This document shows, in pieces, positions 2,070 to 4,831 of a DNA stretch of 64,000 nucleotides. The notes under the pieces are model-generated. The model searched no databases. It was not told the DNA's origin and was given only the letters and a program-made list of their open reading frames with translations. Made by a program: the position numbers and the translations under genes. Source of the stretch: a virus (Duplodnaviria > Caudoviricetes); IMG/VR virus record IMGVR_UViG_3300030107_007272, positions 2,023-66,022 of that record; one strand, given 5' to 3'. Numbering within the stretch: position 1 is the first letter of the stretch; each line of letters starts with the position of its first letter.

Positions 2070-3191
2070 TTATTTTAATATCGTTATTTTAACAGCATCT
2101 GTATCATTTATTATGTAATAAATTCCAGCAGATATTTTATCGGTATTCCAAATATACTTCCCATCTATGTCAATTTGTTTTATTAGTCTACCCCTTATAT
2201 CATATATAGTCGTATAACCATTTCCAAATATACTTATATGATTATTTGATGGATTAGGAAAGACTATAACTTTATCTTCGTTTAAAACTGAATATTGACT
2301 AGTTAGTTGTTTAAACTCTGAAGGTGTTACTATTGACTCCAAATAATTTATCGCTCGTTGTTGATTCCCACCTATGATTTGTTGTAATAAAAAAATAACA
2401 TCTAAAACATTTATAGAACCATCACTATTTATGTCTGAACTTTCTATTGAACATCCATCATTAGCATGACCTAATACAATATCTACTAATAATAAAATAT
2501 CAAATAAATCAACAAAAGCATCACCATTTAAGTTACCTACATAAAAAGAAATGTTATCACAAGGATCACAATAATCACCAATGCCGTCTAAATCATAATC
2601 CTCTTGGTTAGGATTATATTCCTCTATACAATTATCAACATCATCTAATACACCATCCTCATCCATATCTAATATTAGCGTAGATAAACCTGTTTCTATT
2701 GCCGTAATTATAGCACTCTGATTAAATCCAGATTGTGAATAAATTACTTGTCCAGCACCATTTATGACAATGTTGTGAGGGACATAACCAACACCGAATA
2801 AGGAATAAATGTTACCACCACTATTATCATCTAAAATTGGTAATGTTTGACCAAACGATGTTGCCCAACCTTGACAACTATAAGGTTGATTCCAATCCAT
2901 TCCAGCAGTTACCACTTCTACTCTTTGTCCTAGATATTCTTGATAAATATATTCAATGATCGGAGCCTCCGATTGACAAGGTCCTCACCAAGTTGCGAAT
3001 GAAGCTATGAACACAACTTTATTGTGTCCAACAGAGTCATAAGACCAATAACCATCTCCATTGTAACATATATCGGCACCAAAATCTTGAACAAAATCAC
3101 CCTCAACATATGTCTGTGCTAAAGTTTTATTTGTAAAACCAGAGAACAAAATGAACCCAATTATCCAGTATAATATTTTTTTAACTATCAA
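2070..3191 (-). CDS. secreted selenocysteine-containing TlpA/thioredoxin-fold protein with TSP3 repeats, dockerin-like domain and secretion-type C-terminal tail (373 aa by TGA readthrough at 2985-2987)
   Basis: ORFs 2985-3191 and 2070-2915 are in one frame; junction reads SFATW-(TGA)-GPCQSEAPIIEYIYQEY...; signal peptide; DNC...NPNQEDYDLDGIGDYCD; two GD/N-x-N-x-DG EF-like motifs; VFPNPSN...IYDIRGR...GIYY tail. Confidence 0.85.
2954..2975 (-). promoter_or_regulatory. putative bacterial-type SECIS hairpin
   Basis: Sense CAATCGGAGGCTCCGATCATTG: ATCGGA/TCCGAT stem with G-starting loop 17 nt after the TGA; GC-rich in an AT-rich context. Confidence 0.65.
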
Positions 3192-3298
3192 AAGAACACT
3201 CTCCTTAAAATTTTAATTACAAAAAACCAACTTGTTAAAGAAAATAAAGGTATGATAACAACCCAAACAAACAAATTATACCAATCTATTTTTCTCAC
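3188..3298 (-). CDS. small membrane peptide (36 aa, MRKIDWYNLFVWVVIIPLFS...), not in ORF track
   Basis: GTG start overlaps def stop and TGA overlaps next TTG start; single hydrophobic helix. Confidence 0.55.
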   Translation of the reverse strand: MRKIDWYNLFVWVVIIPLFSLTSWFFVIKILRRVFF

Positions 3299-3918
3299 TC
3301 CATTACCCATCCTTGATTTAACAGGTTATGTGCCTTTTTGTATTTTAATACTTTAACAGCATCACCTCTTTTAATCGTTACTAACTGATTTCTACCTATT
3401 TTCTTTTCCACTTTAACAGTTGTTTCTCGTTTTCTATCTTGAACAGTTTTACCATTCAAGTGATCTATTTCATGTTGAATACAAACAGACTCAAGTAATC
3501 TTTGTTCTTGGTCGTGTTTAGACGCAACTTCCCAAGTACCTTTAGCATCTTTTGAAGACTCAGCTCCACTAAAATACCATTTTGATTTCTCTTGGTCTGT
3601 ACTTATAATTATATCCCTATATCTTTTTGTGGATACTCGTCTGCCAGGAAAAGATAAACAACCTTCAAAAAAATTAATTTCATTTTCCTTTGATATAATC
3701 TTCGGATTGATGAGTACCAAAGGTTTACGAACATTGACAACGGCCACTTGTGCATCAATTCCCACTTGATTAGCTGCCAACCCAATGCCGTCCCCTCTTT
3801 TGTTAAGTATCTGAAATAATTCTGTTGCGATAGCCAATCCTTCTTCAACTGATACCTCACGAAGTTTTTTGTTAATGATAGGGTTGTGTTCTTTTATACA
3901 ATTTATTACTTTCTTCAT
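3295..3918 (-). CDS. def: peptide deformylase
   Basis: Motifs GIGLAANQVG, EGCLS and QHEIDHLNG. Confidence 0.95.
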   Translation of the reverse strand: MKKVINCIKEHNPIINKKLREVSVEEGLAIATELFQILNKRGDGIGLAANQVGIDAQVAVVNVRKPLVLINPKIISKENEINFFEGCLSFPGRRVSTKRYRDIIISTDQEKSKWYFSGAESSKDAKGTWEVASKHDQEQRLLESVCIQHEIDHLNGKTVQDRKRETTVKVEKKIGRNQLVTIKRGDAVKVLKYKKAHNLLNQGWVME

Positions 3919-4656: not shown

Positions 4657-4831
4657 CTCCCTCTTTCAAATCAAGAGCAAAGTTGTCATTTGTCTTACGA
4701 TAAATTTTAGAGTCGTTATCTCTAAATAAACGAAAAACCTCACCAGGATTAATTTCAGAGAATCTATCCTCATCAAATTCACTACCCACACTCGGTGGAT
4801 CGTATCTATCTTTAGCATGATCGTTTGACAT
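4610..4831 (-). CDS. hypothetical protein
   Basis: 73 aa ORF in the co-oriented gene run. Confidence 0.65.
   Translation of the reverse strand: MSNDHAKDRYDPPSVGSEFDEDRFSEINPGEVFRLFRDNDSKIYRKTNDNFALDLKEGVEIQFDSNEKIYVKS

Follow-up and report, generated by a model that had tools for sequence, protein, structure and literature searches.

Prx-like thiol:disulfide oxidoreductases are prokaryotic selenoproteins related to PF00578 that carry a UxxC or UxxU motif (U, selenocysteine, Sec), and the available text of a 2026 review of the prokaryotic selenoproteome describes them as 'predicted with high confidence' (PMC13188914). That review and an earlier metagenomic study place the 'Prx-like protein' family among the most abundant selenoprotein families of the Sargasso Sea (PMC1088965, PMC13188914). 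Here we describe a gene of this kind within a stretch of 64,000 nucleotides of DNA from a virus of the Caudoviricetes (IMG/VR record IMGVR_UViG_3300030107_007272, positions 2,023 to 66,022; the whole stretch is hereafter referred to as the window, and positions are given in its coordinates). The gene lies on the minus strand and contains an in-frame UGA codon within a thioredoxin-type active site. Judging from sequence comparisons, it is almost certainly a rare case, namely a selenoprotein gene in a bacteriophage whose UGA is read as Sec by the machinery of a probable Marinimicrobia host.

Like the Prx-like selenoproteins, the encoded protein has an AhpC-TSA/Redoxin-type domain, a U-x-x-C motif, abundance in surface-ocean metagenomes and homologues with Cys. 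Additionally, a Marinimicrobia homologue with two adjacent TGA codons (L030:6253-6258; W-U-U-P-C) compares with the one to two Sec residues given for that family. Unlike the family, the protein described here is fused to thrombospondin type-3 (TSP3), dockerin-like and type IX secretion system (T9SS) sorting domains, and its gene is found on phage genomes. The protein fits the known Prx-like UxxC kind of selenoprotein, a family matched here by description rather than by reference sequences, and the novelty is the phage carriage and the architecture, not the protein family.

Two other groups of bacterial proteins are informative for comparison. With ResA, CcmG (DsbE) and TlpA, and with Etrx1 and Etrx2 of Streptococcus pneumoniae, the protein shares the fold (TM 0.77-0.86 on target), the place of the active site and a predicted extracytoplasmic location; those proteins, in contrast to the phage protein with its Sec and T9SS tail, rely on Cys and either are anchored in the membrane or are lipoproteins that face the periplasm or the wall. 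The ResA, CcmG, TlpA and Etrx proteins receive electrons from CcdA/DsbD. With the Omp28-related selenoprotein (NF045500), the protein has in common a C-terminal module of TSP3 and dockerin-like repeats, whereas the N-terminal catalytic parts of the two are unrelated. On three Marinimicrobia contigs (L011:2805-3944, L012:2748-3947 and L014:2703-3914), another gene has an in-frame TGA within the motif N-U-P-Y-C, carries this same C-terminal module and lies ~2.2 kb upstream of the thioredoxin-like selenoprotein gene; it is probably the NCBIfam 'Omp28-related selenoprotein'.

Selenoproteins of eukaryotic viruses include the glutathione peroxidase homologues of molluscum contagiosum virus and fowlpox virus, and the redox auxiliary genes of phages include thioredoxins and glutaredoxins. 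Like the poxvirus selenoproteins, the protein described here would be a virus-borne, host-derived redox enzyme that depends on the Sec insertion machinery of its host. The poxvirus cases use a eukaryotic selenocysteine insertion sequence (SECIS) in the 3' untranslated region, whereas this gene belongs to a bacteriophage, has a bacterial-type hairpin just past the UGA and encodes a product predicted to be secreted. No description of a bacteriophage selenoprotein was found in the literature searched (exclusive of supplements and subscription journals). The words 'phage', 'virus' and 'viral' are absent from the available text of the 2026 review (PMC13188914) and of two resource papers from 2025-2026, as is 'phage' from that of the Sargasso Sea study (PMC1088965), and the accessible part of a 2021 marine survey gives no or very few viral sequences for the selenoprotein families it examined. 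Phages of Marinimicrobia are, in the available text of PMC4611503, known only from single-cell contigs. The carriage of a selenoprotein gene by a phage looks new.

The in-frame UGA and its conservation

The minus-strand frame from 3191 to 2070 (373 codons) has as its sole interruption the TGA at 2987-2985, which is codon 69, and the residues around it read ...KVVFIASFATW-UGA-GPCQSEAP... (features are collected in Table 1). A table-11 listing of open reading frames (ORFs) cuts the gene into ORFs of 68 and 281 codons in one frame (2985-3191 and 2070-2915), the latter beginning at a GTG that the ORF lister took as a start, 23 sense codons away from the TGA. A first-pass annotation, made from the letters and this listing, had joined the two ORFs across the TGA, put the stop where a W-C-G-P-C motif has its first Cys and given the full protein as 373 residues; its coordinates and reading are exact, the junction does read W-TGA-GPC, and translation returns the same length. 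The UGA stands at the nucleophilic first position of a U-G-P-C redox motif in a fold of the ResA/CcmG type. Among TGA codons of the coding strand with at least 35 open codons on both sides, the one at 2985-2987 is the only credible one in the 64-kb window; the TGA at 4666-4668, considered as a second hidden selenoprotein, was dropped, as it joins an overlapping non-gene frame.

Table 1. Positions of the selenoprotein gene and its elements in the window.
Feature	Positions	Strand	Basis and remarks
Selenoprotein gene (predicted)	2070..3191	minus	TTG start 3191-3189, TAA stop 2072-2070, 373 residues
AGGAG, putative ribosome-binding site	3201..3205	minus	9 nt before the TTG start; role inferred from sequence
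Predicted Sec-type signal peptide, residues 1-25	3117..3191	minus	KK, hydrophobic helix, T-L-A|Q; judged by eye
Thioredoxin fold of ResA/CcmG/TlpA type with U-G-P-C motif, residues ~26-170	2682..3116	minus	Pfam, phmmer, AF2, Foldseek
UGA, predicted selenocysteine codon, residue 69	2985..2987	minus	TGA kept in 35/35 homologous genes; Cys in 102/110 distant homologues
SECIS-like hairpin AUCGGA-GGC-UCCGAU	2959..2973	minus	11 nt after the UGA; covariation, rare codons
Calcium-binding thrombospondin type-3-like repeats, residues ~173-214	2550..2675	minus	phmmer to thrombospondin-2
Dockerin-like module, residues 221-271	2379..2531	minus	Pfam Dockerin_1 23.4 vs cut-off 22.9
Type IX secretion C-terminal sorting domain, residues 310-373	2073..2264	minus	TIGR04183 25.5 vs cut-off 23

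When related genes were read at the DNA level, TGA was found in the same column (W-U-x-x-C) in all 35, and TGT or TGC in none. These genes represent 34 loci (10 IMG/VR viral loci and 24 GTDB species genomes), one of which, L019, holds a second copy. Because the column is the same in 35/35 genes, the in-frame TGA is not a matter of chance. The two copies in L019 (L019:6202 and L019:7795) are tandem paralogues of the thioredoxin-like selenoprotein on a single Fidelibacterota contig, and both have the TGA. More distant proteins were collected with HMMER, and an exhaustive search from the first 164 residues returned 9,799 of them at E ≤0.001; among the best 149 of these, 110 cover the residue-69 column and 102 of the 110 have Cys there, with Trp in 3 and other residues in 5. 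The first-pass annotation had proposed that homologues would show either a conserved TGA or Cys at this column, and both patterns are present, TGA in the close genes and Cys in the distant ones. In a 201-genome sample of the bacterial phylum, 42 genomes contain a match (E ≤1e-20), with up to four in one genome, and residue 69 is covered by 49 matches, with an in-frame TGA in 35 of them and none in the remaining 14, a TGA being counted here per match rather than by its exact column.

Protein databases record this family in a distorted form. A large protein database contains 191 matches to the read-through protein. Most of those that are not full-length start a few codons past the UGA, and 18 of the 18 that cover at least 94% of the query show Trp at the residue-69 column; several full-length entries also overrun the true stop as '...LLKW...'. 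This Trp is false and stands for a TGA codon, because Prodigal-type gene calling with code 4 was applied to short contigs. Entries P0005-P0025 are examples of code-4 calling with false Trp at the Sec position, some with tails past the true TGA stop. Decoding of TGA as Trp or Gly by an alternative genetic code was rejected for the phage itself: TGA ends 23 of the 63 long ORFs on the coding (minus) strand, and the homologues have Cys.

Conservation is continuous across the codon, as the first-pass annotation had anticipated for a read-through gene, and purifying selection acts on the parts before and after the TGA. Compared with the phage homologue L001, which has 86% nucleotide identity and retains the TGA at a dS of 0.63, dN/dS is 0.197 for codons 1-68, 0.097 for codons 70-373 and 0.109 for the whole gene. 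These values bear on whether the UGA could be a true stop within a split or decaying gene, which would yield a secreted peptide of 68 residues plus, at most, a C-terminal fragment started internally. Such a reading agrees with table-11 gene callers and with the truncated C-terminal part that makes up most database entries, but it would place the break within the thioredoxin fold, after strand 1 and before helix 1, and it would have the identical 'break' recur in 35/35 genes from two kinds of genome while both halves remain under selection and the TGA persists at this dS. The downstream part, moreover, would have a secretion tail yet neither a signal peptide nor the active site. We consider a true stop extremely improbable.

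The hairpin past the UGA and the selenocysteine machinery

The bacterial SECIS consensus is a stem-loop right after the UGA with a G in its apical loop. In the phage gene, the RNA past the UGA can form a hairpin of 6 bp with a GGC loop. It lies 11-13 nt downstream of the codon, 11 nt in this gene, which is the region expected for a bacterial SECIS, and when 31 sequences were aligned without gaps, 91.9% of the cells at its six pairs proved to be paired. Compensatory double changes are seen at four of the six pairs, one of which alternates between C-G, U-A and A-U. The covariation score of 0.240 compares with a shuffle mean of 0.088 and was reached by 0/500 shuffles; when the partners were slid by 1-3 columns as a control, the score was at most 0.113. 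A possible lower stem of 3 bp (2953-2976) is weakly supported, being paired in 62% with no compensatory change.

Several observations weigh against a simple reading of this hairpin. It lies inside the codons of a conserved x-E-A-P peptide, so that its conservation is partly due to the protein; the sequence of L003 departs most from the consensus hairpin among those counted and may fold differently; and an Rfam scan of the window gave no match to SECIS or any other RNA family, which is unsurprising for so short and family-specific an element. Two controls address the peptide. First, among the codons of the hairpin, TCG supplies 5.5% of its family in the phage genes, GAG 36%, GCT 60% and CCG 7.5%, so the palindrome consists of synonymous codons that the phage disfavours. 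Second, in Cys-form relatives belonging to the same phylum, the hairpin pairs are present in only 25 of 54 cells, a count that covers 9 loci and omits 5 of 14 in which the search pattern found no motif. Three of these relatives keep E-A-P with other codons, and three Cys forms still pair at 4-5 of the 6 positions. The codon-usage and Cys-form controls reduce the concern over peptide constraint and do not remove it.

We then consider where the machinery for decoding would come from. The window's own record (66,022 bases, CheckV completeness 36%) has no match to tRNA-Sec, selA, selB or selD, and the window contains no tRNA of any kind. In five related viral records, which span 42.7-94.2 kb and are 25-51% complete, no tRNA-Sec over the cut-off and no selB was found; a weak match to the tRNA-Sec model in one of the related phage records proved to be tRNA-Gly(TCC). 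The viral record that holds the homologue L010 (G208) encodes a tmRNA (L043:65-469; Rfam RF00023, 93.6 bits; ARAGORN tag peptide) together with tRNA-Gly(TCC), ~13 kb from that phage's selenoprotein gene. Among five Marinimicrobia genomes that carry the gene, selA and selB are present in all five, selD in four and tRNA-Sec over the cut-off in three, and the T9SS translocon protein SprA is found in four; the missing genes may reflect the incompleteness of assemblies of 1.6-2.4 Mb, the size of metagenome-assembled genomes. The first-pass annotation had assumed that the phage would borrow host machinery and had suggested searching both sides for it, and the outcome is as it foresaw, with no Sec genes in the phage record and Sec genes in the bacteria with the closest homologues. 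In three of the Marinimicrobia genomes (G003, G002 and G005; loci L040, L041 and L042), selD itself has an in-frame TGA (motif G-A-G-U-A-C-K) and a GC-rich hairpin that begins ~12 nt past this UGA, the spacing seen in the thioredoxin-like gene, and selD is therefore itself a selenoprotein in those bacteria.

These data also bear on the possibility that the UGA is decoded, though not as Sec, with near-cognate read-through (Trp or Cys) or low-level suppression placing an ordinary residue at the site, at least during infection, when Sec supply may be limiting. The phage records examined carry no Sec machinery, and the Sec assignment is a prediction from sequence, both of which leave room for this view. 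Against it stand the exclusive TGA of the close genes and the Cys of the distant ones, the classic Sec/Cys pattern; a hairpin that is tied to the TGA forms; and the presence of selA, selB and selD in the gene-carrying bacteria. If Cys served equally well, TGT or TGC would be expected in close relatives, and it occurs in 0/35. Decoding as an ordinary residue is in our judgement quite improbable. Taken together, the conserved TGA, the Cys homologues, the hairpin, the selection on both halves and the Sec genes of gene-carrying bacteria support the selenoprotein reading that the first-pass annotation had put forward.

Phage genome and exchange with Marinimicrobia

The window encodes matches to PHROGs for a T4-type DNA polymerase (E=7.5e-196), a clamp loader and a UvsX-like recombinase, as well as a gp32-like single-stranded DNA-binding protein, a DnaB-like helicase, exonucleases, a ribonucleotide reductase and a prohead-protease-like protein. 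Its DNA polymerase is 46% identical to that of the myovirus Microcystis phage Mel-JY01 and 32-34% identical to those of cyanomyoviruses. The genes are tightly packed and all on one strand, and no capsid, terminase or tail gene was found in the window. All ten viral loci share further genes with the window, which genes varying by locus, while the bacterial loci share with it only the selenoprotein gene and a module of a neighbouring gene. In 50,697 records of GenBank phages, there was no homologue beyond two weak thioredoxin-domain matches in gut contigs.

The contig could alternatively be cellular, either a genomic island of Marinimicrobia or a host fragment placed in the wrong bin, in which case the gene would be an ordinary bacterial selenoprotein gene. 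The record is indeed a fragment, its sole structural-type gene is the prohead-protease-like one, the other structural genes named above are missing from the window, and its large block of sugar metabolism looks cellular. This explanation is nonetheless difficult to reconcile with a full T4-type replication and recombination module, with the tight single-strand gene order, with the ten IMG/VR contigs that share various genes with the window where bacterial flanks share none, or with the shorter architecture of the phage proteins, and we regard it as very improbable. Of the bacterial proteins, some are ~500 residues long and have an additional domain of ~140 residues, and others, at ~800 residues, have an FG-GAP propeller; a T9SS sorting domain ends nearly all of them.

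Phage and bacterial copies are intermixed in a maximum-likelihood tree built from 36 rows of the thioredoxin domain. Parsimony counts 5 label changes on it, well-supported branches force at least 2, and the supported group that includes the window's gene comprises 5 viral and 2 bacterial rows. The tree comes from a quick search with SH-aLRT support only and is unrooted, and we claim no direction of transfer from it. It indicates that the gene has passed between Marinimicrobia and their phages on more than one occasion. Among the bacterial loci, 15 of the 24 are named Marinimicrobia, Neomarinimicrobiota or Fidelibacterota, and the other 9 carry no phylum name; a Marinimicrobia host for the phage appears well motivated by these relationships. 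The position of the gene on a phage genome, its homologues in cells and the selection that maintains it lead us to class it as a phage auxiliary gene, apparently host-derived and kept under purifying selection. Overall, we think it very probable that the interval is a single gene from a T4-like marine phage and that its product is an exported selenoprotein of 373 residues, for which the machinery of a Marinimicrobia host would supply Sec.

The neighbourhood of the gene has features of its own. A peptide deformylase gene (3295-3918; Pfam E=1.3e-26) lies directly upstream, and a homologue of it is also close to the selenoprotein gene in L001 and L010. A scan of the window for promoters and terminators found 15 against 16.8 expected by chance, and no terminators. 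From 5288 to 37014, this T4-like phage has a very long series of sugar-nucleotide and polysaccharide genes, with family-2 glycosyltransferases, UDP-glucose/GDP-mannose dehydrogenase, epimerases/dehydratases, a C-methyltransferase and an aminotransferase, which suggests extensive modification of surface glycan, phage DNA or particles.

Domain architecture and predicted surface location

The first residues of the protein are probably a signal peptide: the pattern at the N-terminus is signal-like and common to the homologues, and an AF2 model places a helix at residues 2-17. Over residues ~48-158, three Pfam families score above their cut-offs (Redoxin 35.4, AhpC-TSA 34.4 against a cut-off of 26, and Thioredoxin 28.2 bits), and residues 58-152 align to ResA 4nmu in a phmmer search of the Protein Data Bank (PDB; E=1e-9), an alignment that puts residue 69 opposite the first Cys of the CxxC motif. 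The AF2 model, built from a 60-row alignment, has a mean pLDDT of 87, with 90-97 in the thioredoxin domain. When this domain was searched with Foldseek, the top matches were ResA (TM 0.82-0.86 on target), CcmG/DsbE and Etrx, together with proteins of the secreted mycobacterial DsbE/DsbF type. The 'TlpA-like' label of the first-pass annotation holds at the level of the fold and does not extend to the subfamily: the NCBIfam scores are 56 for ResA (cut-off 170), 29.3 for DsbE (cut-off 123) and 25.8 for TlpA (cut-off 230). Two described selenoprotein families were tried and rejected as a home for the whole protein, the WAxxUGC ResA-like selenoprotein (NF041054; 37 vs a cut-off of 300), whose motif differs from the F-A-T-W-U-G-P-C found here, and the Omp28-related selenoprotein (98 vs a cut-off of 200), to which the match is confined to the C-terminal module.

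The three C-terminal elements named in the first-pass annotation were all recovered. Residues 175-214 match the calcium-binding type-3 repeats of thrombospondin-2 (phmmer against the PDB, E=1.3e-13), though Pfam TSP_3, at 18.1 bits, is under its cut-off of 25. The dockerin-like pair passes the Pfam cut-off (Table 1), and residues 158-273 match positions 257-376 of the NCBIfam Omp28_seleno profile (E=7e-28), its C-terminal module. The secretion tail is recognised by TIGR04183 as a sorting domain such as T9SS type A cargo carries, while Pfam PF18962 (Por_Secre_tail) falls just short (26.3 vs 27); in the AF2 model, residues 309-371 are all-beta and form a beta-sandwich.

These parts can be combined into a possible course of events in the infected cell. 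Host SelB and Sec-tRNA(Sec) would bind the hairpin and insert Sec at the UGA. The signal peptide would then carry the protein over the inner membrane via the Sec translocon, and the C-terminal sorting domain would pass it to the type IX secretion system of the host, leaving it on or outside the cell surface, where the calcium-binding TSP3 and dockerin-like modules may hold or dock it. There, the U-x-x-C centre could serve as a highly reactive selenol/thiol oxidoreductase that reduces or exchanges the disulfides of surface proteins or acts on their oxidised groups; alternatively, it may react with oxidants. The nearest worked-out analogy is that of the pneumococcal surface thioredoxins. What the phage would gain is speculative, protection of the infected cell's envelope and alteration of surface receptors being two candidates.

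A number of points count against this scheme as a whole. Expression, selenium incorporation and export are all predicted from sequence, and the assignment of a Marinimicrobia host is derived from shared genes only. Since the phage records are only 25-51% complete, Sec genes could be present elsewhere in these genomes. An earlier AF2 model from a shallow alignment of 20 rows was poor (pLDDT 65), although the 60-row model supersedes it. The biochemical role is the weakest link: a ResA-type reductant normally takes electrons from an inner-membrane partner, and no electron source is evident beyond the outer membrane. With these points in mind, we lean on balance towards a picture in which a whole group of uncultured T4-like phages of Marinimicrobia (SAR406) has a functional selenoprotein gene with its own bacterial SECIS, draws on the host's selenocysteine recoding while infecting it, and thereby places a selenol oxidoreductase on the cell surface via type IX secretion.

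Provided that translation occurs as predicted, the gene exposes a systematic annotation error, in that database entries are cut at the UGA or given a false Trp by code-4 calling, and it points to a surface-exposed selenoprotein family in SAR406 bacteria. If the interpretation is correct, this would be the first described bacteriophage selenoprotein. The fitness of such phages would be tied to selenium supply, their host range would be confined to Sec-decoding bacteria, and a selenol enzyme at the cell surface might shield or remodel the proteins there, or alter receptors. Translated as predicted, the gene would mean that bacteriophages use the costly and host-specific recoding of selenocysteine, so that their auxiliary genes reach the 21st amino acid. 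It would also provide a strong independent host marker, through Sec machinery, T9SS and Marinimicrobia homologues, for abundant uncultured marine phages, and selenium availability in the ocean could influence the interactions between these phages and their hosts.

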